Origin: an uncultured Clostridia bacterium
GTDB taxonomy: Bacteria; Bacillota; Clostridia; Oscillospirales; Acutalibacteraceae
DNA: 64,000 nt
NCBI GenBank assembly: GCA_946185345.1
Contig: CAMHJC010000001.1
Location: 486-64,485, forward strand
Direction of reading: 5' to 3'
Shown: piece after piece, positions 11,555 to 35,670 of the stretch
Layout of the letters: each line of letters opens with the position of its first letter
Position numbering within the stretch: the stretch's first letter is position 1
Made by a program: the position numbers and the translations under genes
Notes under the pieces: model-generated
Database searches by the model: none
What the model saw: only the letters and a program-made list of their open reading frames with translations
What the model was told of the DNA's origin: nothing

Positions 11555-11684
11555 TGTTTTTCTCCTCACTTTTAGATTTTTTTGTACCGGGTTTCCGAAA
11601 AGCCGGCATGCGCACGACAAAACCTGCGGCGGGCAACCGCAAGCCTGTCACGGCCATTCTGCCGCTTTTGGAACATGAGCCGGG

Positions 11685-12206
11685 CTATCTGCGCCACAGC
11701 CTTCGCGCAAAAGCGGCAAGCTTTTCAAAAATCAGTACTGTATACTTATCATTTCTTCCGCTGTGCAGGATCACTCCCTCGAGCGAAAGAAACAAAAGCC
11801 ATAAATCAAGAATCACGGGTGTTATCCCGCTGACATTTTTCGCAATCATCACCGCCAGGATGAAGACCGCGGATACGAGCAAAAGTCCCCATGACATGGC
11901 CCGTCGGCCGGGCATGCGGAAGGCCGCTCCGGCATGTGGATGACCGGACGCTTTCGGTTCGGTCAGACGGCGCAGTCTGACGGTGGCGGCGCAGAAAACG
12001 GTGCCGCAGATCAGTCCTGCCCAGAAGATGCCGGCCGCAATGTACAACGCGGCGGAATGTTCATTGGTTTCCACCGAAATCACCAGCGGAATCAGCAGAA
12101 TCGAACAAACCGATACAAAATAGCCTGCCGCGGCAAGGGCATAATACAGCAGATGCCGCCTTTTGAGGGAGGATTCACTCTTATTGGTTTGATTGCTCAA
12201 GCGCAA
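11685..12206 (-). CDS. Hypothetical polytopic membrane protein (about 4 TM)
   Basis: 173-aa ORF with hydrophobic segments YYALAAAGYFVSVCSILLIPLVI, LYIAAGIFWAGLICGTVFCA, WGLLLVSAVFILAVMIA and ILDLWLLFLSL. It begins 4 nt after the upstream gene ends. No family recognised. Confidence 0.55.
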   Translation of the reverse strand: MRLSNQTNKSESSLKRRHLLYYALAAAGYFVSVCSILLIPLVISVETNEHSAALYIAAGIFWAGLICGTVFCAATVRLRRLTEPKASGHPHAGAAFRMPGRRAMSWGLLLVSAVFILAVMIAKNVSGITPVILDLWLLFLSLEGVILHSGRNDKYTVLIFEKLAAFARRLWRR

Positions 12207-12210
12207 CGCC

Positions 12211-13017
12211 TCATTCTATAACTTCGTCAGTGTGTATTTCCACCATGCTTCTCACTATGCGGAAGGAAACGGCGGCAGGATTGACGGGCTGCTCGGATAC
12301 GCCTTCCAGCACGGTAGTGCCTGCGCCCCGGTCTTCCCCGGAAAGCTCCGTGAGCTCCACGGCATCCGAGCCGGTGAGCAGAGCGGTTCCCTCTTCGTGG
12401 AGAGCCTCTTTGCTTCCCGTGAGAAGGGCGGTTCCTTCATCGGAGCAGATGCCTTTGGTGCTGTTGCCCGTGAGCAACGCCGTACCTTCCTGATCGTCAT
12501 CCGGCGCACCCATCGTTTCATATTCATTAGGTTCGGGAAGCTTCTGTGTCGGGGGACGGTTGGAAATTGCGGACTTTTCTCCGTAAAGCTCGCCGGTGGT
12601 CGGCTCCTCTTCCTCCGCAGAATAACCCGCCTGTTTAAACGCCTGCGGATTCAGCGATTCGCTGGTCTTGTCGAGTCTCTTTGAAGCGTGCGCAACAGGA
12701 ACGGCGCCGGGGGCCGGTACTCCGTATGCCTGAACGGAAGGCGCGGACATATTGGACGGCATGGCGCCTGAATTGCCGACCTGCTGTGTCAGCTTGCCTC
12801 TGGCAGCATTGACGCTGCTCGGACGGTGAAGCTTGGCGCCGCTCGCCGAATTATTCTCACGCATGGCCTTGATCTCACGGGCGACTGTTTTGCCCGTAAG
12901 ATCACCGATAACGGACGGAATCTTAAGCTTGATGAATATCAGGATTGCCGCTATCAGCGCTATTCCCGACAGCAAAAAGCCTACTATCGAAATGATATTC
13001 CAGGTTTGTGCGCTCAT
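12211..13017 (-). CDS. Bitopic membrane protein with a disordered tail carrying reiterated E-G-T-A-L-L-T-G motifs
   Basis: N-terminal TM is IISIVGFLLSGIALIAAILIFI. The Pro/Ser-rich tail has 3 x EGTALLTG and 1 x AGTTVLEG (aa 177-239). It is 2 nt from the kinase gene stop. Confidence 0.7.
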   Translation of the reverse strand: MSAQTWNIISIVGFLLSGIALIAAILIFIKLKIPSVIGDLTGKTVAREIKAMRENNSASGAKLHRPSSVNAARGKLTQQVGNSGAMPSNMSAPSVQAYGVPAPGAVPVAHASKRLDKTSESLNPQAFKQAGYSAEEEEPTTGELYGEKSAISNRPPTQKLPEPNEYETMGAPDDDQEGTALLTGNSTKGICSDEGTALLTGSKEALHEEGTALLTGSDAVELTELSGEDRGAGTTVLEGVSEQPVNPAAVSFRIVRSMVEIHTDEVIE

Positions 13018-14798: not shown

Positions 14799-15572
14799 TC
14801 AGACTGCCTTAATCAGCAAAGCCGTTATGTTGTCGTTTTCGTGACGGTATTTATTCAGATCAATCAGCTGCACGATATGCGACTCCATCTCCTGCTCTGA
14901 GTGATTGACAGACGGGCCGAGTGTCCTGGCAATTTCCTCCGCCGTGATCTCGTGGCGGAAGCCGTCCGAACAGAGCATATAACATTCTCCGGAATTCGCC
15001 CTGCCGTAATAGAAGGCCGGCTCGACTGTCCTTGAAGCGCCTACGCACTGAAGAAGCACATTCCGGCGGGGATCCTTTTCGGCCGCTTCGGGAGTAAGTC
15101 TGCCCTTCTGAATTTCTCTGGCGACAAGGGTCTGATCCTCGGTAAGCACTTCGGCGTTGGAATCGGTGATGCGGTAGGCTCTGGAATCGCCCACATGACC
15201 GATAATATACCTTCCGTTTTCGAGAATCAGCATGGCGGTCACGGTAGAACCCAGCTGAATGCGAAAACGCTCACCGTATTCCGAAATAATCTGATTCTGC
15301 TGCCGGATCATCCTTCCCCATGAATAGGCCACGTCTCCGATGACGTTATCGCCTGAGAGAAATGCAGGGAATTCATTTTCGAACCAGTCGCAGAAAGCTT
15401 TGATCACGGCAGCGCTCGCCACTTCGCCCTTGGACAATCCGCCCATACCGTCACAAATGACTGCGAGAAGGATATTTCCCTTGTCGGTGACGGCCTGCTT
15501 GATGCAGCAGCTATCCTGATTTGTTTTTTTCTGAATGCCTACGTCTGTACTTAACGAGAGGTTAAATTCCAT
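14799..15572 (-). CDS. PP2C-family Ser/Thr phosphatase
   Basis: Motifs TDVGIQKKTNQDS, CDGMGG, VGDSRAY, LCSDGF and DNITALLI. Confidence 0.9.
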   Translation of the reverse strand: MEFNLSLSTDVGIQKKTNQDSCCIKQAVTDKGNILLAVICDGMGGLSKGEVASAAVIKAFCDWFENEFPAFLSGDNVIGDVAYSWGRMIRQQNQIISEYGERFRIQLGSTVTAMLILENGRYIIGHVGDSRAYRITDSNAEVLTEDQTLVAREIQKGRLTPEAAEKDPRRNVLLQCVGASRTVEPAFYYGRANSGECYMLCSDGFRHEITAEEIARTLGPSVNHSEQEMESHIVQLIDLNKYRHENDNITALLIKAV

Positions 15573-15584
15573 TTAAACACCTGC

Positions 15585-16892
15585 TTATTCAACGTAAAAT
15601 GTAAATTTTTCATTTGCCAGAAGTATCTCAGAACCCGAAAAGACTTCCACTTCGGTTTCTCTTTTAATCACTCTGCCGTCAACATAGGTTTTGTTGGTGG
15701 AATTTTTATCCACCACATAGAAGTGATTTCCTCTGGTGACGATATCCGCATGGCTTCTGCTGACATAACTGTTGTCCGACACGAAATAATCGCAGTACTC
15801 TCTTTCGCTGCCTATGCGGAACACCGGTTTATCCACCGGTATTTTCTCACGGCTCTTTTCCCTGATAAGGTAAGGATAAGCCGGCGCAGGCAGTTCGTCA
15901 CACCCCAGCACCACGGTGCCTCGTCTCTCGTTGTATCCAAGAACAACCGTACCCGAAGGAGGCGCCTGGCCGGCCGCCGGATCGGGATCAATCTGATCCC
16001 GGACAGGTGTCGGAACCTGATTCCGTGTCTGAACAGGAGACGGAGCCGGAGTCTCAGCCGGAGTCTGAGCGGCGCCTTTGTCGGATACTCCGCCGGCGGT
16101 TCTGCCGCCGTTGACGCCGTTCGGTTTGACCAGCGGCTTGCCGCAGAAGGAACAGTAGCTGGATTCGATGGTGTTTTTTGTGCCGCAGTACATACAGAAA
16201 AGCGTGCGTCTTTTTTCTTCGATGATCTTTATCCTTCGCTTTTCGTCAAAGGGGTTGTATTCGATTCCCTGAGGAGTCTCACGGCTTTTCTGGTCCTTCG
16301 GTTTTTCTCTGAGCTGATCGGAAGGCGCCTGATAACTGTATTCTTCTTTTCTGCCCATCAGATACTTAATCAGACGCTGGAAATTATTGATGGAAAAAGG
16401 CGCTCCGCTGCTGAAGAAGGCGTAATAGCTGTTGAGAAAGCCCATGTTTTCTCCCGGAATGAAGCTGAAAAACCCCGGCAGCTGATGAAAGAACAAGCCC
16501 TTTTCCTCGTAATTATAATTATTCAGAACCGGCCAAAGTATACATCTGACGGTACCCTGCGGATCAAGAAAAATTCTGTCCGGATCCAGGTCAATATGAT
16601 TGCTGCTCAGTCCCAGATCCTCACATTTTTTGATGATATTGATCAGCTGATCCACTACCTTGAGGAAGTAGGTTTTGTTGACAGAGTACCCGTTATTGTG
16701 CGACACAGGATTCAGTCCCTGCACAATACACTCAAGCACGGTTGTCTTGCCGCTCTTTTTTACGATGACCGGCAAAAAGGCCCCCAGCGAAGAGCTTACA
16801 TTCAGTTCCCGTTCATATAATACTTCAGGATATGTAAATTTATTTGTTATGATGATTCTGCCTGATGTGATTTTTGTCGTTATTTTACTCAA
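15585..16892 (-). CDS. Pseudokinase-like N-domain + zinc-ribbon + Pro-rich linker + C-terminal FHA domain protein
   Basis: The N-domain has a degenerate catalytic-loop-like stretch NHIDLDPDRIFLDPQGTVRCILWP. Zn ribbon is CMYCGTKNTIESSYCSFCG. The linker carries SGTVVLG and RGTVVLG. FHA motifs are FRIGSE, SRSHA and STNKTYVDG. Confidence 0.8.
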   Translation of the reverse strand: MSKITTKITSGRIIITNKFTYPEVLYERELNVSSSLGAFLPVIVKKSGKTTVLECIVQGLNPVSHNNGYSVNKTYFLKVVDQLINIIKKCEDLGLSSNHIDLDPDRIFLDPQGTVRCILWPVLNNYNYEEKGLFFHQLPGFFSFIPGENMGFLNSYYAFFSSGAPFSINNFQRLIKYLMGRKEEYSYQAPSDQLREKPKDQKSRETPQGIEYNPFDEKRRIKIIEEKRRTLFCMYCGTKNTIESSYCSFCGKPLVKPNGVNGGRTAGGVSDKGAAQTPAETPAPSPVQTRNQVPTPVRDQIDPDPAAGQAPPSGTVVLGYNERRGTVVLGCDELPAPAYPYLIREKSREKIPVDKPVFRIGSEREYCDYFVSDNSYVSRSHADIVTRGNHFYVVDKNSTNKTYVDGRVIKRETEVEVFSGSEILLANEKFTFYVE

Positions 16893-17296: not shown

Positions 17297-17602
17297 TTAC
17301 TTAAACGCATCCGCCAGGGATGTATTCTGCTCTTCAACGCTCACATAGCCTTTGGCTATCAGTTCATGAAGCGCATTGACATAATTCTGCATCGTATTGT
17401 ATCTCGGCTGGCGACAGCTTTTCATAATGCTTTTGAATGTCCCTATAGCGTGCTCCGCTGCGGGACCCTGCCATGATGAATCGAGCCTTGCCATACTATT
17501 CCTCATCACAGAATCGACATCATCGTCAAGCCTGCTGTTGATGACATCAATCGTACTTGCCGTAGAGTCAACAATGTCTGTATTGACATACATTTCGTCC
17601 AT
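17297..17602 (-). CDS. WXG100-like small helical protein
   Basis: SSWQGPAAE motif. The C-terminal EEQNTSLADAFK resembles the tail of the EsxA-like protein (AEAQNISIAEAFR). ATG 17602 follows GGGAGG. Confidence 0.7.
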   Translation of the reverse strand: MDEMYVNTDIVDSTASTIDVINSRLDDDVDSVMRNSMARLDSSWQGPAAEHAIGTFKSIMKSCRQPRYNTMQNYVNALHELIAKGYVSVEEQNTSLADAFK

Positions 17603-17748: not shown

Positions 17749-17988
17749 TCAAGCTTCACTTGTCTCCATATCGGCCATTACTTCTGAAATGTTGATGTTG
17801 CTTAATCTGTTATAGACTTTTTCGTAATTGCGGGCGACATCCGTAATGGCGCCGGCGCACATCTCCGTACCGATTCCCTGAAAATTCTCACCCCGGAGAT
17901 CTTCCGCAATTCCGTAAAGATCTTTGATGATTCTGCTCAGATCATTCTTGATATCACGTATCTGTTCCTTTGCTTCATATTCTGTCAT
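17749..17988 (-). CDS. 79-aa helical hairpin protein (FQG in place of WXG), putative effector partner
   Basis: ATG 17988 follows GGAGG. The track start at 18066 would overlap the upstream gene. Central ENFQGIG turn. Sits directly downstream of lipase effector 2. Confidence 0.55.
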   Translation of the reverse strand: MTEYEAKEQIRDIKNDLSRIIKDLYGIAEDLRGENFQGIGTEMCAGAITDVARNYEKVYNRLSNINISEVMADMETSEA

Positions 17989-18010: not shown

Positions 18011-19519
18011 TTACATTGCGCCGGTGATAGTTGATTCCACCGCATCAAATTCCCTCGCCGTATCATTCAGATAGGATACGCACGACGCCAGCAGTCCGCT
18101 TCCGTTGGTTCTGATGTCTGCCGCCATTAGATTCCATTTATCAAAAAGATTCAGGGCGGAATACAGTCTGTCCATCCTGTCGTCTATGGATACCAGTTTT
18201 TTGTTGATTCCGGCCAGTTTAGTGGCATATTTTGTCAGCTTGCCCGTATCCACTCTGATTTCGGTGTAGGACTGGGCGTAGATGTATCCTTTGTTGAAGT
18301 TGGAATTATACCACTCTTTGATGTTATTATAAATAGTCTGGATGGCGTCTTTGAATTCCCTGACTTTTTGCTTTGTCCAGTTGTACGCGGTTTCGAGCAT
18401 ATTGGCAACGCCTTCGATCACGTTGTTGATGAATTCCGTTACCGCCTCGTAAACGTATTCATAGGCATATGCCACAATCGCCGCCACGATGATGGCCGCC
18501 ACCTCCGCCATGATGAGCGAAGTGATATTGAGTTCCGTGAGAACAAGAATGGTGCCTATCAGATTAATCACGCCGTTAACCGAAATATTGCCGTCTTCAT
18601 CATACAATATATCAAGTCCGGCGGTTGTGACAATCATCAGATCAGCCGCAATCCATTTGATCTTGTTTCCGATAATCGAAGGCATATGGTCCACGCCGAG
18701 GGAAATCTTCTGCGTGATCCTGGAAAGGGTGTCCTGTTCGCCTTCGACCAGCGAATCGCCGTCGTAATCAAGATATTTTGTATCATGCCGGTTAAATGAA
18801 TTATATTTGTCGTCGTCCCTGTTTCTCACAGCCACATAGTGATACTCGCAATCCGGCAGGTCATTGAGCAGGTTGCCGACAAAGCTCCACCGGTAATGCT
18901 TCATTTTGGGACTCATATGGGCGATCTTATCCTTGTATTTTTTCAGAAACTCGCCCGAAAAACCAGGGCCGTCGAGACTGACGCACTGTGTGATATTTCC
19001 GTCGAGGCCGTACTCTTCCGAGACGATGGTGGCGTATTCCGCCAGATTGCCGCCCAGTGAATGGCCGGTCATACAGAGTTCATTATATCGGCTCAGAAGC
19101 TCCTTGTTTCTCTTCAGAAAATTTCTTACCTCACGCTGCTGCTTTGTGCAGGTCTCATTGATCAGCAGGATATCGGCTTCCGTCCAATCATGGATACCGT
19201 TGGCCAGTGAGGTGAGAGCTTCACTTCCTCTGAAGCCGACCACGCCGGCGCCGTCCGGCGTCTCCATCACGCAGCAGCTGAAGCCGTTTTTGTCATTGGT
19301 ATCGTGAACGGCGACGATTTTCCAGTCGTCGATATCACTGGCAAGCTCGTTTTTGATATAGTTGTAAATCCTCAGATTGTCTCCTGTCAGTCTTTTGGCA
19401 ATTTCCTTGAAGGTGAAGCTGGCGTTTTTTCCCATTTTTTCCATTGCTTCCTGAAAGAAGGAATCGAGATGCATATACGCCACCTGAGAGGCGGCCACCA
19501 TTCTTTTATCCGACTGCAT
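18011..19519 (-). CDS. Putative T7SS lipase/esterase effector 2: N-terminal alpha/beta-hydrolase (DUF2974-like, GHSLGG) + hydrophobic middle + C-terminal LXG-like helical domain
   Basis: Nucleophile elbow is GHSLGGNLAEY. Hydrophobic stretch is IMAEVAAIIVAAIVAYAY. The C-terminal about 110 aa (IRVDTGKLTKYATKLAGINKKLVSIDDRMDRLYSALNLF...) is homologous to the tail of the 20262-21773 product. Confidence 0.7.
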   Translation of the reverse strand: MQSDKRMVAASQVAYMHLDSFFQEAMEKMGKNASFTFKEIAKRLTGDNLRIYNYIKNELASDIDDWKIVAVHDTNDKNGFSCCVMETPDGAGVVGFRGSEALTSLANGIHDWTEADILLINETCTKQQREVRNFLKRNKELLSRYNELCMTGHSLGGNLAEYATIVSEEYGLDGNITQCVSLDGPGFSGEFLKKYKDKIAHMSPKMKHYRWSFVGNLLNDLPDCEYHYVAVRNRDDDKYNSFNRHDTKYLDYDGDSLVEGEQDTLSRITQKISLGVDHMPSIIGNKIKWIAADLMIVTTAGLDILYDEDGNISVNGVINLIGTILVLTELNITSLIMAEVAAIIVAAIVAYAYEYVYEAVTEFINNVIEGVANMLETAYNWTKQKVREFKDAIQTIYNNIKEWYNSNFNKGYIYAQSYTEIRVDTGKLTKYATKLAGINKKLVSIDDRMDRLYSALNLFDKWNLMAADIRTNGSGLLASCVSYLNDTAREFDAVESTITGAM

Positions 19520-19523
19520 GCCG

Positions 19524-20243
19524 TCACGCTCCTATTGATTCTTCCATTTCGGCAGGCGTCACCGAACTGACGCCGTTATCTATCAGCACATTCTGCATTC
19601 CGAGCGGATCATAATTCTGAATGGCTGCCAGCGTCACGCCGGGATAATCCTCCATCTCCTGCCGGCAGGGTTCATAGGCATCCTCCCGCATGGCAAAAAC
19701 CAGTGCGCCCAGGTCGATCTCCAAAGATTTCCCTGTGTCGATCAGAGCGTTCAGCACCTTTTCGCCGTAATTATCTCCCGGAATAAATATCAGCCGCACA
19801 TGGAACCGCTCTATGCCGTGCCTGCTTAAGAATTCACTGACGCTGATGCCGGTATCGGTTTCACTGACGCTGTCGGCTATATACACTTCAGAAGCGCCGG
19901 TCAGGCCTGACTTCTGAAGATGGCCGTCAATCACTCTCTCCACTTCACGGCATTTGAGAGCGGTGACGTAATTTTCCGTAATGGTGCCGTCCTTGTCAAT
20001 GGTGGCGGTAAACACCAGATCGGGGTCGTTTTTGGGAACAATGTAAAGAAGCGCATGGCTTGTATTCAGTCTGTCGCCGATGTGTGTCGCGGTAAATTCG
20101 CAGCCATAGACATTTTCCAGATAACTGCACACCTTGTCAGCCGTAGGTTGATTGATTTCCAGACATGCGCCCATTCCGATCATCATGCCCAAAGCCATAA
20201 TAATTCCTCCGATACGAATGATAATCCGACTCATTTTTTTCAT
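19524..20243 (-). CDS. Lipoprotein, putative immunity protein (paralog of 21787-22446)
   Basis: Lipobox in signal MKKMSRIIIRIGGIIMALGMMIGMGAC. Shares YLENxY..(K/E)F and GT(I/F)(T/S)(E/D)NY motifs with the other lipoprotein. Its stop is 4 nt from the effector 2 start. Confidence 0.65.
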   Translation of the reverse strand: MKKMSRIIIRIGGIIMALGMMIGMGACLEINQPTADKVCSYLENVYGCEFTATHIGDRLNTSHALLYIVPKNDPDLVFTATIDKDGTITENYVTALKCREVERVIDGHLQKSGLTGASEVYIADSVSETDTGISVSEFLSRHGIERFHVRLIFIPGDNYGEKVLNALIDTGKSLEIDLGALVFAMREDAYEPCRQEMEDYPGVTLAAIQNYDPLGMQNVLIDNGVSSVTPAEMEESIGA

Positions 20244-20261
20244 AACAAGTCCCTCGTAAGA

Positions 20262-21773
20262 TTAACCAAATGATTTGATGATGTTGTTTTCCACATTTTC
20301 AAATTCCTGCGCCACATCGTTAAGATAATCGCCGCAGGCCTTCAGCTTTCTGCTGTACTCAGTGGTAACATCCGCGCTGAGAAGCTTGAGCCCGTCAAAC
20401 AGATTGAGCCTGAAATACAGTCGGTCCATATCACGGTCAATGGTATCCAGCTGACCGTTAATTTCCGCAATTCTGTCACAGTAGCGATAGAGCTTGCCGG
20501 TATCCACCCGAATCACCGTACCTGCCTCTGCGACCATCCGCTCGATCCTTCCGGATTTTTTATTATACCAGTCTACTACCTTGTTGAAAAAGTCGGTAAT
20601 TTTTTTCACATTCTGCTTGATCACATCAAAGGGAAGTTTCACGATATCGACTACCAGATTTTCAACCAAAAGCGAAAGGTTGTCAATTTCGACTCTGAGA
20701 TTGACCAGTGTTTTATCGTCAATCGTAAAAGGACTTGTCATGACGATGCCCAGAATGATTCCGCCGATGTCCGCCAGCGTATTCGTTATCGTACCGATCA
20801 CCGGTATGTCGGAAACCAGCGCCAATCCCACTGTAATATTATGGAGCCACTTGCAAACCTCTTCCTGCTCCACATACGCTTCCTCCCGGAAGTTGCCGTT
20901 TTCGTCAAAGCTGCCGTTTCTGTCGGCATAGGTGAGTATGCCGTAGCTGCCGTGATTGAATATGGCGTCTTCGGCTCTTTCGTTGTCCGTCATATCCTCC
21001 TTGTGCTTTTTATTCCGATCGGGAATGCCGGTATGGGCATCTTCCAGATCGGACTTGGAGCCATGACCGCTGTCGCTCTTGACATATACGGTTTCTCCGG
21101 CTATATCTATCAGCAGGATATCGACAAAATCCTTGGAGCCGTTGATATTTTTGATCTTGTCCTTGTTGCGCGCGATCTGCCGGTCATAGCCCTGGACAAA
21201 CTCCTTGCTGAATCCCTGGCCTTCATACGAAACGCACCTGTCAATCTTGTCTCCGCAGACAATGGTCACATACATCGCCTGATTGCCGCCGTTTGAATGG
21301 CCTGTGACATCCATATGGTCATACGGAAGCGATCTGATGTACTCCGCCGCGGCCTCCTGCGATTTCTGGGACATATCCCCGTAACCGTGCGTATTGTTGT
21401 TCCATTGTTCGCTTGATCCGCCGGTGCCTCGGAAGGCCACCGTCACATCCCCCGAAGGCTCAACAAAACAGGCGGCACGTATTCCGCCGTAATCCTTTTG
21501 TGTAGGATACGTGACCTTCAGACTGCACAGCTTGTCGTCCTTCAGAATCTCCTCGAACAGGTGCTTGACAGCGGGAAGATCCGATTCCAGACCTCCCGAA
21601 AGGCTCCTGGAGCGACTGCCGAAAATCTTTTCGATCTTCTCCATGGAAACGCTGCCGTCCTCATTCTGGAATTCCGCCAGAATCTTGCCGAGAGGCTTAT
21701 TGTAATGGCAGTCTGTAAGATCGGTGTACATCAATGTATCAAGTAAAAGCATCTGTCGTTCTGACAAAGCCAT
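20262..21773 (-). CDS. Putative T7SS lipase/esterase effector 1 (same architecture as 18011-19519)
   Basis: Nucleophile elbow is GHSNGGNQAMY. The C-terminal tail VIRVDTGKLYRYCDRIAEINGQLDTIDRDMDRLYFRLNLF... is paralogous to effector 2. Confidence 0.7.
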   Translation of the reverse strand: MALSERQMLLLDTLMYTDLTDCHYNKPLGKILAEFQNEDGSVSMEKIEKIFGSRSRSLSGGLESDLPAVKHLFEEILKDDKLCSLKVTYPTQKDYGGIRAACFVEPSGDVTVAFRGTGGSSEQWNNNTHGYGDMSQKSQEAAAEYIRSLPYDHMDVTGHSNGGNQAMYVTIVCGDKIDRCVSYEGQGFSKEFVQGYDRQIARNKDKIKNINGSKDFVDILLIDIAGETVYVKSDSGHGSKSDLEDAHTGIPDRNKKHKEDMTDNERAEDAIFNHGSYGILTYADRNGSFDENGNFREEAYVEQEEVCKWLHNITVGLALVSDIPVIGTITNTLADIGGIILGIVMTSPFTIDDKTLVNLRVEIDNLSLLVENLVVDIVKLPFDVIKQNVKKITDFFNKVVDWYNKKSGRIERMVAEAGTVIRVDTGKLYRYCDRIAEINGQLDTIDRDMDRLYFRLNLFDGLKLLSADVTTEYSRKLKACGDYLNDVAQEFENVENNIIKSFG

Positions 21774-21786
21774 TGTTACACACTCC

Positions 21787-22446
21787 CTATCTTATTACAG
21801 TATTCAAAGGCGGTACGGAACTGTAGCTGTCAACATACTGATCCACGCTTTCCTGACTGTCCAGCGCTCCGTACTGCTCCGGAGCAAGCGGATATAACGC
21901 CACATAGCCCCCGAAATGCTCCGACTGAAGATCAGAACAGACAGCATCAAAAAGCTTCTGATCCTGTCCGGCTGACGACGGAACGAGAATGTGGATGTCC
22001 GTCCTGAAATGCTCGGGATATCTGACACGATAGCTGTCGAAGTCGTCCATATCCACCGCTTCGTCCGGAAAATAGGACGAAGTGAAATAAAACGTAAATT
22101 TCGCATCCTGTATATGCCTGTTCAGGATGGTCTGTATTCTGTCGCGGCAGACGGCTTTTGCCATAATGCCGTAATAATTATCTGAAAATGTCCCGGAATC
22201 CCGACACACTACTATTTTCTCGTTTGGATATGCGTCAGAAGAAAAAAGGATCTCAGCGTAAGGTATATCCATGCTCGGATAAATCACCGTCACCAGGTCA
22301 AACTTCTGATGGTATTTGTTTTCCAGGTATTTCTGCGCCTCACCCGCAAAATCGTAATTCTTATCCATACAACCGCTCACTCCCGAAATCAAAATTATCG
22401 CTACGGTCAGAAAAATACTTATGATTGATTTTCTTGCCAAATTCAT
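21787..22446 (-). CDS. Lipoprotein, putative immunity protein
   Basis: Lipobox in signal MNLARKSIISIFLTVAIILISGVSGC. Lies immediately upstream of effector 1. Confidence 0.65.
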   Translation of the reverse strand: MNLARKSIISIFLTVAIILISGVSGCMDKNYDFAGEAQKYLENKYHQKFDLVTVIYPSMDIPYAEILFSSDAYPNEKIVVCRDSGTFSDNYYGIMAKAVCRDRIQTILNRHIQDAKFTFYFTSSYFPDEAVDMDDFDSYRVRYPEHFRTDIHILVPSSAGQDQKLFDAVCSDLQSEHFGGYVALYPLAPEQYGALDSQESVDQYVDSYSSVPPLNTVIR

Positions 22447-22575: not shown

Positions 22576-22884
22576 TTATCTGAATGCTTCAGCAATGCTG
22601 ATATTCTGTGCTTCAGCGGCGTCATAACCTTCGGCTACATTGGCTCTGAGGAATTTGACATATTCGTTGATGATATCCTCGTACAGCTGGAAGAACTTTG
22701 AGGCAAACTCATTGTATGCGTCAATGGTGGAAGCGGAAGCTTCACCTTCCCAGATATTTGCCAGATGATCTACGGTTTCCTTGCTGCGCTGGAGCTCTTC
22801 TGTGAGCTTTTTATTCAGACTTTCAAGCTGGCTTGCGATCTCAAGCACTTGATCTGTACTTATTCTGATACTGTTACCGGCCAT
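22576..22884 (-). CDS. esxA: WXG100 protein (EsxA-like)
   Basis: 102 aa. Central IWEGEA (WXG) motif, two-helix layout, GGAGG-type RBS. Confidence 0.85.
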   Translation of the reverse strand: MAGNSIRISTDQVLEIASQLESLNKKLTEELQRSKETVDHLANIWEGEASASTIDAYNEFASKFFQLYEDIINEYVKFLRANVAEGYDAAEAQNISIAEAFR

Positions 22885-22906: not shown

Positions 22907-23212
22907 TTAGTTTGTCAGCTTACCTACCTGTGTGATGTTGTCATCCTGACGGGCAACATAGTTGGCTCTCTGCTTGTCAAGCGCTTCGCTTGCAAGAGCG
23001 AGCTTCTCCGCCATTTTCTTCAGCTCCTCGGTAAAACCGGTAATGCGCTGAACATAAGCGAGATTGTCAGCACCGTCCCAGGCGCTGCCCATGGTGCTTG
23101 CAGCCTGCATCAGCTGAGTGTAAATCTGTGTATAATTCTCGGAACTTGCGCGAAGCTTCTGCGACGCGGCAGCCATCTCCTCAAATGATGCAACATAGAT
23201 TGTTTTTCCCAT
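22907..23212 (-). CDS. WXG100 protein (second paralog)
   Basis: SAWDGAD motif. ATG 23212 follows AAAGGAGAA; the track start is 23233. Confidence 0.8.
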   Translation of the reverse strand: MGKTIYVASFEEMAAASQKLRASSENYTQIYTQLMQAASTMGSAWDGADNLAYVQRITGFTEELKKMAEKLALASEALDKQRANYVARQDDNITQVGKLTN

Positions 23213-23241
23213 AACAAGGTTCTCCTTTCGCAAAAATTGAA

Positions 23242-23499
23242 TTATATCAGCATGAGCCGGGAGCCGTTATGTATGCCAAGCTCCGCAACAATCATGTTAA
23301 TATTGTAAATAATGCCTGTGTCGGCGTCGCACAATACCGCATCACGCGACGCCTTGTATTCTCCTCCGGAGAGATCGCTGAGCGCGCTTGCGACAAGCTG
23401 CACAACTTCGCTCATTCTGCTCTCGAGAGGAATGAACACGTCAAATGTTTCTCCCGACGCGGGAACGGATATTTCAACCAAAGCTTTGTTACTCAGCAT
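23242..23499 (-). CDS. esaB: YukD/EsaB-like ubiquitin-fold T7SS protein
   Basis: 85 aa. The pattern ...FDVFIP....M.EV.......L......(long loop)....L.ELGI.NGS.LMLI is typical of YukD. Overlaps the essC stop by 11 nt. Confidence 0.75.
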   Translation of the reverse strand: MLSNKALVEISVPASGETFDVFIPLESRMSEVVQLVASALSDLSGGEYKASRDAVLCDADTGIIYNINMIVAELGIHNGSRLMLI

Positions 23500-26400
23500 C
23501 TTCTTCCTCCGTTTTGCTCTTCAGCAGCTTAATCTTGACGCACTTGCCCTTCTGCATGACATAGCCGAAGCCGGAGCCGATCGGTTTGCGCAGCTCAGGC
23601 GTCATGGTGGTCGGCTTCAGATAGAACTGGTCAGAGAAGCCGTTGCCTATCCATATGCCGTCCACCTGCGATACATTCTGTTTGTACCACTTCTCGTACG
23701 ACACAGCTGAAATGGCGTTGATCTGCTCGGCGATGACGATATTGATCCTGTAATCGACACTGCCTTTTTCCAAAATCAGCGACAGCCGTTCGTTGGCGTC
23801 CTGACTGAGCACGCCTTTGAGGGCGGCCAGCGAATTGATGATGACAAATACGCTTTCAAACGCCTCGGGATCCTGTCCCGCCGCCAGAGCATCCTTGTAG
23901 GTGTTGTTTCTGTAGAGCACCAGATCAAAGAGCTTTCGCACTTCGCTCTCGCAGTCCTTGGCCGAATTGCAGAGCGTCAGCGTGCCGGTGGGAACGGAAA
24001 CGGATTTGGGCGCATCAAAAACGACGCCCTTTACCACTTCGGTTGTACCCGCCAATTCCGCAAAATCGGCGATAAAATCCTGATATTCATTGCCGGAGGA
24101 ATGAACCATATTGATATAGGCCGCTCCGAAGGGGTAATAGCAGACATTGAGGGTGCTTTTTTCCATACCGACAGGAATCCGGATCCTGTCATTCGGGCGG
24201 ATATATCCCCGCAGGAATTCAACATCCACCTTCTCGGGGAGAATGGGAACCCTCTTGGCGACTTCGCCTTTCCACGAGGCGCTGACCTTGCGGCAGTCGT
24301 CACGGATAAAGGCAAAGGGTACGCTCTCGTCGGTCAGGCTGGCCGCCTGGAATTCATACAGCGCTTCCTGCCGGATAAGGCCTCTGCCCTTGATTTTGGC
24401 AGGATAAAGACCCTCGGTCTTGCCCACAACGGAGGAATAATCCGATTCGTCGTTGAGCTGCATTACCAGGAGCTGCTTGAAATTCTGAAGCATTCTGAAT
24501 TTGACACTCGTTGTGCCGAGGGCGGTGAGTACAAAATAAATGCCGTACTTGGTGCCTTCACGGGAAAGGAATGCCACGGCCTCCTCCCGGTCGCTGTATG
24601 TCTCGGTAAACGCGGAGAAATTGTTGATGGCCACCACTATGGACGGCAGAGTTTCTCCCGAAGTGCCGATATAGGAGCTGTAATCGCCGCCGTAATTGGC
24701 AAAGAGCTTTTTGCGCCGTCCGGTCTCTTCGAGCAGCATCTTGAAGAGATTGCCTACCTTCTCGGCTTCATAGGAAAGGATCACATCGCCCACATGAGGC
24801 GCATCGGCAAATGCCCTGAGCGTCTCGGATGCGAAATCGAGTATGTAAAGGTTGACTTCGTCGGGCGTGTGCTCGTGAATGAGCGAATAGATCATTGCGT
24901 TGAGGAATGTGGTCTTGCCGCTTCCCGCAACACCGTAGACCACGGCGTTGCCTTCTTCGGATATGGGAAGCCGCAGCACGCACTGCCTCTGGTTGGCCGG
25001 ATCGTCAAGCTCGCCGATGACGGGATTGAGCTTGAATCGTTCGGATACGACCGAGTATTTCTTCTTGACGTCTTCCATCATGATCACGGCAGGAATAGGC
25101 TCGAGCCAGAGCGGTCTGATCTTAATGCCTTCTTCCTCGGCGGTTTTCTTCAGATATTCAGTGATAACGTCAAGCTGCTTTTTGGCGTTGCCTCCGGCAT
25201 TCTTTCTGCCGGGCTTTACTTCTTTGATAACGTGTCCGTTGCGGTCGATGACGGCAACGCTGTTGTCTTTTTCCTTGACGACCGTTTCAGAGGGATAGTA
25301 CGGCGCTCCCGACCATGCAGACTGTCCGAGTTCAAACAGCTCGTTATAGCCGACCTGAAGATAGAAACGTCCGGTATCGGTCAGCTCGGCGGCGTCGGGA
25401 CGCTTGAGCATATCCATACTGTCGGCACGCTCCTGCACCTTGAGACACACACGGAACTTACTGTTGCTCCATATCTGATCGTCAACCACGCCGCTCGGCT
25501 TCTGGGTCGCCAGTATCAGGTGAACGCCAAGGCTTCGGCCGATACGGGCGGCACTGACCAGCTGGGTCATGAATTCCGGCTGCTGGGTTTTCAGCTCGGC
25601 GAACTCGTCGGAGATGATAAACAGATGCTGCAGCGGCTCCTCCACGGTGCCTTCCCTGTAGAGCTTCTGATACTTGTAGATATCGATGTTGCTGACGCCG
25701 ACCTTCTTGCTGGCGTCGGCAAAAATCGCCTGTCGGCGCTTCAGCTCACTCTCGATGGAAACGAGCGATCTCTTGATGGCGGCGCCGTCGAGATTGGTGA
25801 TAATGCCGGCGGTGTGCGGCAGATGTTCAAATGACTTCGCCATGCCGCCGCCCTTGTAGTCGATGAGGATAAAGGCCACCTCGTTGGGGTGATAATTGAC
25901 GGCCAGCGAAAGAATATAGGTAATGATAAACTCGGATTTACCCGAACCGGTCATACCCGCGACCAGACCGTGAGGGCCGTGGAATTTTTCGTGCAGATCA
26001 AGCTTGAAGGTCTCGCCGAGGGTATCCACACCCACAGCGGCTTCAAGAGATTTGGTGGGATCATTGTCTCTCCATCTCGCCAGGGCGTTGAGATGTTCGA
26101 CCATGCCGACTCCGAACATTTCCAGGAAGGTCAGCGTTCTGGGCAGCTTAAAGCTTGTCGCGCTGTTATCCAGCGTGATATTGGCAAGTCTCACGCTCAG
26201 GTCGAGCGGATCCTGCAGCGGCTTTATGTCAGGGAAAAATTCCGTGCTCTTGCCGGAAATGTCGTTTTTGTCAAAGAGTCTCGCTCTGTTGCCCGACAGC
26301 TCGACCACCATGGAACATTCCTTGGGCAAATCCTTCAGCTCGTCATAGATGGATATCACGCTGATGTTGAGATTTTCCTTCTTGGCGAGCACCTGTTTGA

Positions 26401-28042
26401 CCACTTCCGTGTGAACCGCCAGCGTCTTGCTCATGGAGAATATGATGAAATAAGGAGATGTGTCCTTGAGATCATTCTCATTCATGGCAATGCGGGCCTC
26501 GACAATATTCTCAAGATAGGCGGAAAGTTCCTTCGCCTCGTTGTTGTTGGTGGCGATAAAGCGGAATTTATTGTCGTCGTTCCAGACATGCGGGAGCCAT
26601 TTGACAAATCCGAATTCATCCTCATCATCAATGTCATACAGGAACACCAGCTTGACTTCGTCATAGCTGTAGAGAGCCGACAGCTGAATAATCAGTCCCT
26701 TGGCGAATTCAGCCGCCTGCTGCTTCTGGCCTATGATACCCGAAATGTGATCTTCCGCCAGTGAATAGGTAATGGGTATGTTGTGAAGCTCCTTGGGTCT
26801 TTCGCACAGGATGTACATTTCCTCTTCCAGAATGTCGTCATCCGTGGAGAACCTGCGTTCGGAATAGGAAAACTCGGCGTCAAGAAGTCCGCTGCCGTGG
26901 CCGACTCTCACTCTGAGAAAATCATTCTGTCCCGGAGCGCGTTCCCACAGATTTCTCTGGACGTTTCTGATGCGGTTTTCACACTCCCCGACGGTAATGC
27001 AGTTCTCATTGAGGATGGAAACCTGTTCCTGGCTCGCCTCGTTGATTTTAACGGAGAGATGATTGAGGTATTCCCTGTATTTTTTCTGCCGGATGACTTC
27101 CTTTTCCTTTTTCCTCCGGCGCTCATATGTCTTGATCAGCATCGGCATGAGCAGCGTGCCGATCATCATGCTTCCGCCCATTACCATAGACATCACATTG
27201 CCGGTAATCGCGGCGTTTGTCACTGTCACTACCGACATCATGCCCATGGCCATCGAGGAACCGATCACCAGAGGCCACGGCATTTCCTCCGTAACGGGAC
27301 TGCTGGGAGGAGAATCAATTTTGAATTCCGCCGTTTCAATGTCTCTCTTGAATCTCGGGGAACGGTAAAAGAAATCCGGATCCCTGAGCTCGTATTCCTC
27401 CTCGTCATCCGACTCGGCTACCGGCTGGCTGATATACCGCTGCAGCTTGGCCGAAGCGGTAACCCTGCCGTCAGGATTATTAAATGCGATAAAATTCTTT
27501 CCTATTATAATCTTAAGGCCCATAATAAAGACCACATCGCCCACATAAAGCTCCGCTTTTTCTATTCTGGCCTTATTGACGAATGTTCCGTTGGTACTGC
27601 CGTTGTCAAAGATGTACCAGTGGCCGGACTTATAGGACAGCACCGCATGCCCGGAAGAAACAAAACTGTTGCTGAAACAGATATCGTTGCGCTCGTTTCT
27701 TCCTATAAAGATATCGACATCGTTTTCCACCAGATATTTGCTGAATTCCTGTCTGTCATCGGTAACAGGCTCGGTAAACACAAAAATCTTTTCTTTATTC
27801 TGCTTGGAAAGCACGTAAATACTCATGGGCTTTGCCACTGTATTCTTAAGCACGTTCTCCTTGCCGTCAGTCACCTTTACGGTGCGGTTTGACTTGAGCA
27901 CCCACTTGTCGCTGATGCCTTCAATGCCCACCAGTCTCATCGGGCCATTATCGGTTTCCTCATACAGCCAGTATCTGCCGGTAATTTTGTCAGGCAGCGA
28001 CACCGTATTCAGATATGACTTGGTAATCGTAGTAACAATCAT
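23489..28042 (-). CDS. essC: EssC/YukB-type FtsK-SpoIIIE T7SS ATPase with N-terminal FHA domains
   Basis: N-terminal FHA (GRNERNDICF...SSGHA...STNGTFVN), then 2 TM helices, then three P-loop ATPase domains (GMTGSGKSEF, GVAGSGKTTF, and a degenerate third). ATG 28042 is preferred (MIVTTITKSYL...; GGAGAAG upstream). The track start is 28114. Confidence 0.9.
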   Translation of the reverse strand: MIVTTITKSYLNTVSLPDKITGRYWLYEETDNGPMRLVGIEGISDKWVLKSNRTVKVTDGKENVLKNTVAKPMSIYVLSKQNKEKIFVFTEPVTDDRQEFSKYLVENDVDIFIGRNERNDICFSNSFVSSGHAVLSYKSGHWYIFDNGSTNGTFVNKARIEKAELYVGDVVFIMGLKIIIGKNFIAFNNPDGRVTASAKLQRYISQPVAESDDEEEYELRDPDFFYRSPRFKRDIETAEFKIDSPPSSPVTEEMPWPLVIGSSMAMGMMSVVTVTNAAITGNVMSMVMGGSMMIGTLLMPMLIKTYERRRKKEKEVIRQKKYREYLNHLSVKINEASQEQVSILNENCITVGECENRIRNVQRNLWERAPGQNDFLRVRVGHGSGLLDAEFSYSERRFSTDDDILEEEMYILCERPKELHNIPITYSLAEDHISGIIGQKQQAAEFAKGLIIQLSALYSYDEVKLVFLYDIDDEDEFGFVKWLPHVWNDDNKFRFIATNNNEAKELSAYLENIVEARIAMNENDLKDTSPYFIIFSMSKTLAVHTEVVKQVLAKKENLNISVISIYDELKDLPKECSMVVELSGNRARLFDKNDISGKSTEFFPDIKPLQDPLDLSVRLANITLDNSATSFKLPRTLTFLEMFGVGMVEHLNALARWRDNDPTKSLEAAVGVDTLGETFKLDLHEKFHGPHGLVAGMTGSGKSEFIITYILSLAVNYHPNEVAFILIDYKGGGMAKSFEHLPHTAGIITNLDGAAIKRSLVSIESELKRRQAIFADASKKVGVSNIDIYKYQKLYREGTVEEPLQHLFIISDEFAELKTQQPEFMTQLVSAARIGRSLGVHLILATQKPSGVVDDQIWSNSKFRVCLKVQERADSMDMLKRPDAAELTDTGRFYLQVGYNELFELGQSAWSGAPYYPSETVVKEKDNSVAVIDRNGHVIKEVKPGRKNAGGNAKKQLDVITEYLKKTAEEEGIKIRPLWLEPIPAVIMMEDVKKKYSVVSERFKLNPVIGELDDPANQRQCVLRLPISEEGNAVVYGVAGSGKTTFLNAMIYSLIHEHTPDEVNLYILDFASETLRAFADAPHVGDVILSYEAEKVGNLFKMLLEETGRRKKLFANYGGDYSSYIGTSGETLPSIVVAINNFSAFTETYSDREEAVAFLSREGTKYGIYFVLTALGTTSVKFRMLQNFKQLLVMQLNDESDYSSVVGKTEGLYPAKIKGRGLIRQEALYEFQAASLTDESVPFAFIRDDCRKVSASWKGEVAKRVPILPEKVDVEFLRGYIRPNDRIRIPVGMEKSTLNVCYYPFGAAYINMVHSSGNEYQDFIADFAELAGTTEVVKGVVFDAPKSVSVPTGTLTLCNSAKDCESEVRKLFDLVLYRNNTYKDALAAGQDPEAFESVFVIINSLAALKGVLSQDANERLSLILEKGSVDYRINIVIAEQINAISAVSYEKWYKQNVSQVDGIWIGNGFSDQFYLKPTTMTPELRKPIGSGFGYVMQKGKCVKIKLLKSKTEEEDAE

Positions 28043-28530
28043 TATACCTGCTTCTCCAATCGCAACTATCAGTATGAACGACGTACAATCATACAACGCA
28101 TTATTCAGAGACATGCTTATACATTCTCAATTTTATATTTTACATCGAGTTGCCAAAAATGTCAATATCTTTATAAAAGAAAGCATAATGTCGTAATTAT
28201 CGCAAGACTTCACTTATTAGACATAATTCACTCAATAAATACTGCTCAAATTTTAATAATCAAACTAACAAATCATCTTCAGACTTTCCTTTTTCTGCGG
28301 ATTAATCAAAAAAAAGCAATCAAAATCCGGCGATATTTTTGCACAGTGTCATATATCTTCGCTGTTTCCCATAGTTGCGTTTTTACAATCGGCTAGTTAA
28401 TTCATGAAAAAGAGGTGCGGTTTACCATCATTATTCATTTTTCAGTCTTAAGTTTTCCGTCTTAAGTTGGAAAATCCTGTCTTGGAAACCGAAGAATGAA
28501 AACTTAAAACTTAAAAAAGAATAATACAAA

Positions 28531-28982: not shown

Positions 28983-29128
28983 GGTTTTTTTTTAAATTTA
29001 TCCGATAATTTTTTTGTGTGCCAAAAGGTTAAATCATAATTATTTGAACTAAGTTTACATATTCGTAATAAAGCAGTCCAAAAACTGTGCCATAATGTTT
29101 TATATAATGTAAATTGAGGGGCAGAATA

Positions 29129-30079
29129 TTGTTCGGATATGTACGCATTTTTAAACCGCAATTGAGAATATGCGAATATGAAACCTATCGCTCTGTGTAC
29201 TGCACGCTGTGCAGGCATCTCGGAAAGCAGATGGGGCCGGTTTCCAGACTGCTGCTCAATTACGACTACACATTCATGACCATGCTCATGATCGCGCTCA
29301 GCGGTGAAAAGCCGGAGTTTGTTCCGGGCAGATGCGCCGTGAATCCAGCCAAGAAATGCGGCCTGTGCCGGACGCACAATGACGCTTTTGCGTACACCTC
29401 GGCGCTCACCGCCATCATGTTCTATTATAAACTCAAAGACAACATCAGGGATTCCTCTCCCGGCAAGCGGCTCTTATGGCGTACTCTGACGCCTTATGCC
29501 TCGCATGTGCGCAAAAAAGCCAGTAAGCTTTATCCGCAGGAGGACGCCCTGGTCAGCGAATACATAACACGGCAGTTCGAGGCGGAGAGCAAAGCCGTCC
29601 CGGGCGGGGAACTGGTGATTGACGAGCTTTGTGAACCGACCGCCGATGTGATTTCCTCATTTGCCGTCAGACTCTCCGACAGGGAAAGCGACAAGGTGAT
29701 TTTAAAGCACTTCGGGTATTTTCTGGGCCGGTGGATCTACATGATAGACGCACTGGACGACCTGAAGGACGACCTGGAGGACGGCTCCTTCAATCCGCTT
29801 GTACTTAAATTCGGCCTCACTCCCGAAGACGCCGCCACGAAGAGCGAACGCTGGGAGCAGGCCAGATGCTACGGCAATGACAGCCTCAACATGTCGGCCG
29901 CCCAGGCGGTCAAGTATTACGAACTGCTTGATCTAGGCGAATTCAAACCCATCACCGACAATATCATGTATCTCGGCATCTCCGAGGCACAGCGAACCGC
30001 ACTGTTTCCGCCTGCCAAAAAAAGGCGCAGACGTTCAGATAAGAATCAAATTGATACAGGAGTTGAAGAAAATGAATGA
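29129..30079 (+). CDS. DUF5685-like protein (MFGYV... N-terminus, Cys-containing)
   Basis: TTG 29129 follows GAGGGG; the track start is 29114. The N-terminus [31 protein letters not shown] matches my recollection of the DUF5685 family, which is commonly adjacent to a J-domain protein. Confidence 0.6.
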
Positions 30080-35488: not shown

Positions 35489-35564
35489 TTGGCAAATATC
35501 CTTCCGTCGGGATAAAATAACGGATTTCCGTCGGTCTTTCACGGTTCCGTTACTTAAAAATTTT

Positions 35565-35608
35565 AAATAAAAGAGTACAAAGCCGCCGGACCTTTCTGAT
35601 CCGGCAGC
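35565..35608 (-). terminator. Intra-operon attenuator/terminator between SCIFF precursor and maturase
   Basis: Minus-strand RNA GCUGCCGGA-UCAGAAAGG-UCCGGCGGC (one G-U pair) is followed by UUUGUACUCUUUUAUUU. Confidence 0.6.
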
Positions 35609-35670
35609 CTTGTAAAACACTGCGCACAAATTCGCAAAAAATCTGTGCCGCACAGAAATTACGTCAAAAA

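Follow-up and report, generated by a model that had tools for sequence, protein, structure and literature searches.

Reverse type VII secretion system (T7SS) substrates, in which the cargo domain is N-terminal and the targeting domain C-terminal, were demonstrated for the first time in 2023; a second family was added in 2026. The two experimentally established families, Tsl1/TslA (PMC10730906) and Tsl2/TslM (PMC13560087), are both phospholipases with envelope immunity proteins and WXG-like partners. TslA (Garrett et al. 2023) belongs to a T7SSb system and has a DUF576 (Til1) lipoprotein for immunity and two partners; its lipase domain was modelled on Yarrowia Lip2 (3O0D), a class-3 lipase, and its tail on Geobacillus EsxA 3ZBH (PMC10730906). 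TslM (Higginson et al., August 2026) has a divergently encoded DUF1433 membrane protein for immunity, one partner and an unstructured linker, and was compared with the same Yarrowia enzyme; its authors asked whether the signal is read in either direction and whether cargo other than lipases occurs in the reverse layout (PMC13560087). For a further subtype, T7SSe, described by Garrett, Higginson and Palmer in 2024, a 'similar reverse lipase' was glimpsed at the locus of Neobacillus sp. 114 (WP_284036497.1) and was given one sentence (PMC11217815). Here we analyse two tandem lipoprotein-lipase gene pairs (18011-22446, minus strand) in a T7SSe-type locus on a 64,000-nucleotide (nt) stretch of DNA from an uncultured Clostridia bacterium (contig CAMHJC010000001.1), which is referred to below as the window. 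With a probability of roughly three in four, they are two effector-immunity cassettes in a variable cargo slot of this locus, and their lipases are reverse T7SS substrates.

The evidence for this reading comes from domain content, predicted folds, homologies and the order and co-occurrence of genes; that the lipases are secreted, bind partners, act on lipids and are toxic, and that the lipoproteins give immunity, is predicted from it. An earlier interpretation of the same DNA, made without database searches (the sequence-only reading), had proposed the central layout, namely an N-terminal lipase, a C-terminal targeting domain, an upstream lipoprotein as likely immunity protein and downstream small partners in a T7SS operon, and this layout held in silico. 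Its four open reading frames (ORFs) were recovered at 18011-22446 on the minus strand, and the features that it had described in them were found again: the N-terminal GHSxGG domain of DUF2974 type in both proteins of ~500 amino acids (aa), the hydrophobic helical middle, the helical C-terminal domain shared by the paralogues and the diverged, lipobox-bearing lipoprotein before each lipase.

Tandem cassettes in a T7SSe-type locus

In the order of transcription the four genes run lipoprotein-lipase-lipoprotein-lipase, with intergenic gaps of 4-18 nt, and they sit between the second WXG100 gene and the FHA protein gene of the secretion locus. All genes at 3992-28114 lie on the minus strand in tight packing, and no strong terminator-like site was found between the genes of this interval. 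The locus encodes an FHA-EssC ATPase, a YukD protein, two WXG100 proteins, a DUF6382/FHA protein, a phosphatase, a kinase, membrane proteins and an immunoglobulin (Ig)-repeat protein; this component list agrees with the published description (PMC11217815), and by its gene content the locus is of the T7SSe type.

Lipase domain and hydrophobic segment

Both lipases matched the Mbeg1-like/DUF2974 family PF11187 above its gathering cutoff of 21.1 bits (lipase-2, 56.4 bits, E 3.7e-15; lipase-1, 47.8 bits, E 1.6e-12), and lipase-2 also matched Pfam Lipase_3 (E 1.1e-4). The nucleophile elbow reads GHSLGG in lipase-2 (Ser154) and GHSNGG in lipase-1 (Ser160, codon 21294-21296). Among 66 relatives the predicted triad of lipase-2 was kept almost throughout (Ser154 in 66/66, Asp183 and His245 each in 65/66). 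Lipase-1 retains Ser160 and, within 'EDAHT', the His; it carries Glu at the Asp position of the family, as does its closest orthologue. Relatives were named DUF2974 or Mbeg1-like in RefSeq, and NCBIfam gave for the lipases a weak, sub-threshold SA1320-family match on the lipase core and nothing else. A plasmid search returned one weak Lactobacillus DUF2974 match.

An AlphaFold2 model of lipase-2, calculated from a 66-sequence alignment, had a mean predicted local distance difference test (pLDDT) score of 86.8 and consisted of an alpha/beta domain (residues 1-260) followed by an all-helical part (residues 264-502). Foldseek matched the model to class-3 lipases and a type VI secretion system (T6SS) lipase effector in the PDB with E 1e-5 to 1e-3, the class-3 enzymes being M37 lipase, the Malassezia and Penicillium diacylglycerol lipases and the Thermomyces and Rhizomucor lipases. 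PDB sequence search by profile agreed, giving lipase cores only, with the T6SS lipase effector 9cys/7ubz among the best matches; lipase-2 as a single query gave no useful match in the same search. The enzymes are read as serine lipases, most likely phospholipases.

Hydrophobicity profiles showed no N-terminal hydrophobic signal on either lipase. The hydrophobic helices follow the lipase domain, spanning residues 281-373 in lipase-2, and the Kyte-Doolittle peak over 19 residues is 2.45 in lipase-2 (residues 324-354) and 1.7 in lipase-1; in most of the 66 relatives it reaches 3.3 across 45-60 residues. A central Gly-Pro turn was seen in this stretch in five of the six Bacilli relatives compared by eye. 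Lipase-1 and lipase-2 are paralogous to each other (BLASTP E 3e-35, 29% identity over 449 columns), and their best conserved part is the C-terminal ~125 aa (46% identity, against 33% in the lipase domain).

A WXG100-like module at the C-terminus

The conserved tail contains a core module of ~84 aa with the consensus IxVDTxKLxxYAxRL...LDxRxDxLY...YLxxTAxxFExxE. The lipase-1 tail matched the C-terminal profile with E 6.5e-39, the source alignment of this profile having contained the lipase-1 tail itself. In the sequence-only reading the tail looked like an LXG-type T7SS targeting domain placed at the wrong end. A predicted targeting module with an EsxA-like fold and homology to WXG100 tails was indeed found there; the Pfam LXG family was not. 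Of the three families named in that reading as a check, PF11187 was matched by both lipases and Lipase_3 by lipase-2, whereas neither full-length lipase matched LXG (PF04740) at E <= 1. LXG was likewise not among the 25 most-matched Pfam families across 42 isolated tails, and within the locus LXG was matched only by one of the core WXG100 proteins (22576-22884; E 1.3e-5, below cutoff). One of the 42 tails matched WXG100 (PF06013), with E 0.018, which falls short of a significant match with a WxG turn; the tails otherwise matched generic coiled-coil families with weak E-values. The turn itself reads NLFD or GLxDLW in place of WxG.

The expected WXG-like helical fold emerged from structure prediction. 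Lipase-2 residues 375-502 were modelled separately (mean pLDDT 85.7), and the top Foldseek matches were hairpins of EsxA/EsxB type; nearly all of the top 30 PDB matches were EsxA, EsxB or PE/PPE proteins of T7SS (probability up to 0.99, target-normalised template modelling (TM) score 0.6-0.72), and Geobacillus EsxA 3ZBH was in the list. Shorter relatives (430-450 aa) have the same lipase domain, but their C-terminal part is a canonical WXG100 domain of Pfam that includes a WxG motif; the tail type of the window lipases was aligned to it by hhalign (76.8%, E 2e-5, 84 columns). The tail is thus predicted to be a WXG100-sized, WXG100-like T7SS targeting module, the likeness being one at the level of profile-profile comparison and fold.

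The same module was found at the opposite end of other proteins. In six related T7SSe loci, non-lipase proteins of 367-445 aa open with the ~84-aa module and continue with a Gly/Ala-rich remainder (L003, 11796-12914; L004, 5733-6983; L005, 11958-13208; L006, 11774-13111; L009, 7093-8196; L015, 12048-13346). They were matched by the lipase tail with E 1e-23 to 1e-30 in hmmsearch and with 99.93%, E 8.5e-36 and 36% identity over 84 columns in hhalign; their Gly/Ala-rich regions had no Pfam match. Their genes are usually located between the small-protein-1 homologue and the small-protein-2/3 pair described below, and they are likely to be toxins in the canonical orientation that share the small partners. 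Since the module is C-terminal on lipases and N-terminal on non-lipase proteins in related loci, one module is used at either end. Near its own end the module has an FxxxE motif that hardly varies in either layout (F491/E495 in lipase-1 and lipase-2 alike). The F/YxxxD/E export motif, quoted for substrates and partners of T7SS (PMC10730906), is similar, and FxxxE may have the same role here.

The tail profile, run against 1.84 billion representative proteins, gave 751 clusters at E <= 1e-3. In the best 150 of these the domain stood at the extreme C-terminus, with one exception that also bears a C-terminal CHAP domain. A protein of this build, P0214 (799 aa), consists of an Mbeg1-like lipase, a hydrophobic segment, the module at 464-581, a Gly/Ser-rich linker and a C-terminal CHAP domain, and so has cargo on both sides of the module. 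Within these best 150, most candidates for a C-terminal module on a non-lipase protein were short fragments. Two seemingly complete proteins, P0155 (318 aa) and P0243 (296 aa), have a non-lipase N-terminal region, a hydrophobic segment and the C-terminal module, and may be reverse substrates whose cargo is not a lipase; the P0155 tail matched Pfam T7SS_signal (PF21725) weakly (E 9e-4, below cutoff).

Small proteins and lipoproteins

Lipase-2 relatives were collected by scanning one genome per species, and the window proteins were mapped onto the 79 loci found. Three small genes follow lipase-2 in the window. Small protein 1 is the most degenerate, with a weak WXG100 match (E 0.01) and FQG instead of WxG, and homologues of 65-80 aa directly follow the lipase in 24/79 loci. 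Small protein 2 has a WQG motif and an EsxA-like C-terminus and matched WXG100 (E 8.6e-6) and ESAT-6 models (E 3e-8 and 6e-7). Small protein 3, with a WKG motif, scored 27.5 bits against the WXG100 cutoff of 27.3 and is conserved after the lipase in 35/79 loci. It may be, as a speculation, that small protein 1, which lacks WxG, shields the hydrophobic segment before export.

The two lipoproteins are related weakly but significantly (BLASTP E 3e-6, 23% over 107 aa). Each begins with a hydrophobic stretch (residues 1-29 in lipoprotein-1, 4-31 in lipoprotein-2) that ends in the Cys of a PROSITE-type lipobox, GVSGC in lipoprotein-1 and GMGAC in lipoprotein-2. A hidden Markov model of the family matched them with E 1e-30 and 2.9e-62, respectively, values that are partly circular, as the seed alignment included both. 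The lipobox Cys of lipoprotein-2 is invariant in 30 relatives, and most family members keep the signal peptide and this Cys. The window lipoproteins matched no Pfam family at E<=1, hence neither DUF576 nor DUF1433, and among the 25 families most matched by the 30 family members these two were likewise absent; a weak DUF5037 match occurred in 5/30 members. The candidate immunity protein would therefore represent a third immunity family. Searched against the PDB, the family profile matched a hypothetical protein, 4gl6 (E 2e-6). Tandem arrays of 4-7 lipoprotein genes were present in three loci (L031, L076, L024) and resemble the immunity arrays described for S. aureus T7SS toxins. In one of these, from Caldifermentibacillus hisashii (L031, 14-5912), 6-7 tandem lipoprotein copies precede a single lipase gene.

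The two kinds of neighbour follow different parts of the lipase. A lipoprotein-family gene lies directly upstream of 84/108 lipase ORFs, at similar frequency with the tail (51/63) and without it (33/45). Small WXG-like genes were found within 3.5 kilobases (kb) downstream of 96% of the 69 lipase ORFs with the tail and downstream of none (0%) of the 49 lipase ORFs without it; T7SS genes were present in the fetched locus for 91% of the 69. The lipoprotein thus tracks the lipase domain and the small proteins track the tail, which is the pattern expected of immunity proteins and targeting partners, respectively.

Distribution and cargo slot

About 30 loci share the order ATPase, YukD, WXG, WXG, one or two lipoprotein-lipase pairs, small proteins 1-3, FHA protein, phosphatase, kinase. 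They come from Neobacillus, Bacillus, Ureibacillus, Lysinibacillus, Ectobacillus, Paenibacillus, Mesobacillus and Caldifermentibacillus as well as from Ruminococcus, Lachnospiraceae, Oscillospiraceae and Acutalibacteraceae, and many lipase relatives are from gut and rumen metagenomes. Genes of lipase-1 type and lipase-2 type stand in tandem in several lineages, so the duplication of the cassette is old.

For the distinction between core and cargo, metagenome contigs were scanned with the TseJ-like FHA protein as anchor, and 23 loci showed the whole slot, from the second WXG100 gene to the FHA protein gene. The lipase cassette occupied 6/23 slots; 17/23 had none, one of these being almost empty and the others holding ~3.5 kb of unrelated genes. 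The slot is therefore best seen as a variable cargo site, which favours an effector role over a structural one. The sequence-only reading had placed the duplicated cassette inside the core operon; tandem pairs do lie within the T7SSe locus, but as cargo rather than core.

The cassette had also been considered as a core component of the machine; this candidate was rejected on the same count of TseJ-anchored slots. The cassette-free slot inspected (L093, 6255-9776) encodes a lipoprotein of 814 aa, a membrane protein of 176 aa and a WXG-like protein of 171 aa whose tail is long and charged; this locus and similar human-gut T7SSe loci (L089-L106) have a different cargo set with the same machine.

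Features of the locus and neighbouring genes

Coordinates and assignments are collected in Table 1. The TseH/TseK assignment of the two small membrane proteins was made by position and topology only. The large Ig-repeat protein (3992-11620) fits a TseI-type component proposed to span the envelope.

Table 1. Features of the T7SSe-type locus, listed from the 5' end in the order of transcription (positions are those of the window)
Feature	Position	Strand	Basis	Remark
Promoter-like site	28165-28137			just 5' of the ATPase gene; terminator further upstream of this site
FHA-EssC (EssC-type) ATPase, FHA + FtsK_SpoIIIE	23489-28114	minus	TIGR03928 at 1074 bits	
YukD-like ubiquitin-fold protein	23242-23499	minus	PF08817	
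Two WXG100 proteins, TseA/TseA2-like	22907-23233 and 22576-22884	minus	PF06013, E 3.6e-8 and 5.9e-8	upstream border of cargo slot
Lipoprotein-1, 219 aa	21787-22446	minus	ORF	candidate immunity protein for lipase-1
Lipase-1, 503 aa	20262-21773	minus	PF11187	
Lipase-1, Mbeg1-like domain	~20874-21773	minus		
Lipase-1, weakly hydrophobic middle	20643-20873	minus		
Lipase-1, C-terminal helical domain	20265-20642	minus		
Lipase-1, core ~84-aa targeting module (predicted), residues 420-503	20265-20516	minus	start set by IRVDTGKL motif	FxxxE (F491)
Lipoprotein-2, 239 aa	19524-20243	minus	ORF	candidate immunity protein for lipase-2
Lipase-2, 502 aa	18011-19519	minus	PF11187, Lipase_3	
Lipase-2, Mbeg1-like domain	18734-19519	minus		
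Lipase-2, hydrophobic helices	18401-18679	minus		
Lipase-2, C-terminal helical domain	18014-18397	minus		
Lipase-2, core ~84-aa targeting module (predicted), residues 420-502	18014-18262	minus	hhalign, Foldseek of residues 375-502	
Small protein 1, ~79 aa from internal Met	17749-17988	minus		longest ORF to 18066, would overlap lipase-2
Small protein 2, WXG100-like, ~101 aa from Met11	17297-17602	minus		longest ORF to 17632
Small protein 3, WXG100-like, 108 aa	16953-17279	minus		
DUF6382 (weak, E 0.008)/zinc-ribbon/FHA protein, TseJ-like	15585-16892	minus	Pfam	downstream border of cargo slot
PP2C phosphatase	14799-15572	minus	Pfam	
Ser/Thr kinase, one membrane helix	13020-14783	minus	Pfam, hydrophobic segments	
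Two membrane proteins	12211-13017 and 11685-12206	minus	hydrophobic segments	
2542-aa Ig-repeat protein, signal peptide, C-terminal membrane anchor	3992-11620	minus	Pfam, hydrophobic segments	

Next to the T7SS locus, at its end, the plus strand (1505-3585) encodes a response regulator of LytTR type and a GHKL sensor kinase that has many membrane helices; the pair resembles an Agr-like two-component pair. Tandem-repeat arrays with 75-90% matches were found at window positions 1-133 (period 18/54 nt) and 547-802 (period 15/75 nt), and are probably repetitive coding sequence running off the start of the window. Just upstream of the T7SS operon and on the opposite, plus strand (29114-30740), the gene for a DUF5685 protein (E 3e-70) precedes that for a DnaJ-domain/TPR protein whose C-terminus is Cys-rich. 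Farther on, a 506-aa radical SAM/SPASM-domain enzyme is encoded on the minus strand (34133-35653) with a GNAT acetyltransferase and a polysaccharide deacetylase nearby; these genes appear unrelated to the lipase cassettes.

Proposed mechanism and alternative explanations

According to the proposed mechanism, the C-terminal module would bundle in the cytoplasm with the downstream small WXG100-like proteins, one partner set serving the two lipases; this sharing would account for the tails being better conserved between the paralogues than any other part. The FHA-EssC ATPase would recognize the composite helical signal and export the complex. Outside the cell, the hydrophobic segment would seat the lipase on a membrane, where lipids of competing bacteria would be hydrolysed, while the upstream-encoded lipoprotein, tethered to the outer face of the producer's membrane, would bind and block its cognate lipase.

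Several observations weigh against the lipases being exported effectors. A strongly hydrophobic segment of 45-60 residues is unusual for a soluble exported toxin and could mean retention in the producer's membrane; the conservation of cassette position and order from Bacilli to Clostridia would be compatible with a housekeeping function for the secretion machine as well; lipase-1 carries Glu for the family Asp and a much weaker hydrophobic segment; a single set of small partners stands beside two lipases; the tail has no significant Pfam LXG or WXG100 match; and the Foldseek E-values of the tail (0.2-1) are weak, a usual outcome with short helical hairpins, and not decisive. The first two of these points are also those on which a different role could be built, with the lipases as membrane-anchored T7SSe accessory factors that would be exported, held in the producer membrane by the hydrophobic hairpin and active in lipid or envelope remodelling at the secretion site or in cargo processing, the lipoprotein acting as regulator or partner. 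The hydrophobic segment occurs in nearly all relatives, with the Gly-Pro turn in five of the six Bacilli sequences compared, and the gene order is kept in Neobacillus, Bacillus, Ureibacillus, Paenibacillus, Ruminococcus and Lachnospiraceae. We nevertheless consider such a role unlikely: the slot is variable, most related loci being without the cassette, the paralogues have expanded, some copies are orphans away from T7SS genes and lipoprotein genes occur in tandem arrays, all of which is typical of polymorphic toxin-immunity systems, and no lipase is among the T7SSe core components listed by Garrett 2024 (PMC11217815).

If the lipases are exported, their targets might instead lie in an animal host, the enzymes acting against the host or on dietary or host lipids and the lipoprotein merely preventing self-damage during export. 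The founding member Mbeg1 (Gemella) came from a screen for NF-kB-inducing genes, and the gut and rumen origin of many relatives would suit such a target; yet the same cassette, with a full-length lipase relative, is present in Neobacillus, Bacillus, Paenibacillus and Ectobacillus, which are mainly soil or environmental genera, multi-copy lipoprotein arrays point to protection against neighbours' variants, and the characterized reverse T7SS lipases are antibacterial, TslA being dispensable in a mouse abscess model. A host target is accordingly improbable in our estimate. We give slightly less credence still to the idea that the lipases are not T7SS substrates, in which case the general machinery would insert them into the membrane as bitopic or hairpin lipases, and the tail would be an oligomerization coiled-coil and the T7SS linkage incidental. 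The hydrophobic segments could serve as membrane anchors, and the only Pfam families that the tail matches are generic coiled-coils with weak E-values, but it is homologous to WXG100 tails and to the N-terminal modules of neighbouring proteins, its best structural matches are T7SS substrates, and its co-occurrence with small WXG-like and T7SS genes is near-perfect.

Beyond the reading of the two gene pairs as effector-immunity cassettes, a wider proposal can be put forward tentatively, with doubt slightly outweighing belief: the ~84-aa module may act as a T7SSe targeting signal from either terminus, with one partner set, and the lipases may form a third reverse family, distinct from Tsl1 and Tsl2, in which a hydrophobic helical hairpin would seat the enzyme in a membrane after export and which would serve gut and rumen Clostridia as a major weapon against other bacteria. 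Lipases that carry the module C-terminally and other proteins that carry it N-terminally, in one type of locus and beside the same partners, offer a natural test of the either-direction question. A candidate function is suggested for a large share of the DUF2974/Mbeg1-like proteins in gut and rumen Clostridia, a DUF5037-like lipoprotein family is linked, as a candidate, to immunity, and the T7SSe locus is given a defined cargo slot. The class itself was already published; added here are a definition of the family, a lipoprotein partner that is DUF5037-like, the hydrophobic segment, the picture of a cargo slot and the module at either terminus. The general picture of type VII secretion is unchanged, and a recently found class is extended.

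Comparison with known systems

The cassettes show the sequence and predicted fold features of the reverse arrangement, namely an N-terminal GxSxG lipase domain with Ser/acid/His, a C-terminal helical WXG/LXG-like domain, and adjacent genes for small WXG100-like candidate partners and a candidate immunity protein of the envelope. TslA, with which the sequence-only reading had compared them, is indeed similar in domain layout and gene order: a class-3-type lipase with GxSxG and a Ser-Asp-His triad at the N-terminus, a helical WXG/LXG-like domain at the C-terminus, a co-directional lipoprotein gene upstream and small helical partners downstream, embedded in T7SS loci in some species. The targeting tail has no Pfam match, as was also reported for TslA. 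The same reading had supposed that the catalytic fold differs from that of TslA; this is unsupported, since TslA was modelled on a class-3 lipase and lipase-2 also matches class-3 lipases best. It had further taken TslA to be the only reverse T7SS lipase, which TslM (PMC13560087) and the Neobacillus T7SSe case (PMC11217815) contradict. Its main reading was right, and the novelty is smaller than it supposed.

The window cassettes differ from TslA in the lipoprotein, which is distantly DUF5037-like instead of DUF576, in having three small partners common to two lipases instead of two partners, in the hydrophobic middle, of which none was reported for TslA, and in lying in a T7SSe rather than a T7SSb locus. 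With TslM they share the size of ~500 aa, the division into lipase, middle and helical tail, a conserved motif in the turn of the tail, a partner of the WXG100 family and the occurrence of several paralogues per genome; unlike the predicted unstructured middle of TslM, that of the window lipases is helical and hydrophobic, and in place of a divergently encoded DUF1433 membrane protein and one partner there are a co-directional lipoprotein and three small genes. Immunity family, partner number and secretion-system subtype thus place the window lipases outside Tsl1 and Tsl2, a separation drawn from the published descriptions.

The reverse lipase of Neobacillus sp. 114 agrees in the T7SSe subtype and in the reverse idea; the 2024 description gives no family definition, immunity protein, partners or domain analysis (PMC11217815). 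Three other Neobacillus genomes carry full-length relatives of the window lipases in the same slot with the same neighbours (L037, L038, L066), two of which are named 'Mbeg1-like' or 'DUF2974' proteins in RefSeq, and WP_284036497.1 is for this reason very probably a member of the same family. Tle-type effectors of T6SS and DUF2974/Lipase_3 effectors of type IV secretion systems (T4SS), DUF2974 domains being listed among Xanthomonadales T4SS effectors, are likewise antibacterial GxSxG lipases paired with envelope-located immunity proteins, but they use another secretion machine and another targeting signal and lack a WXG-like module. From their domain architecture and gene neighbourhood, we read the window lipases as members of a third, uncharacterized family of reverse lipases that is common in gut Clostridia.

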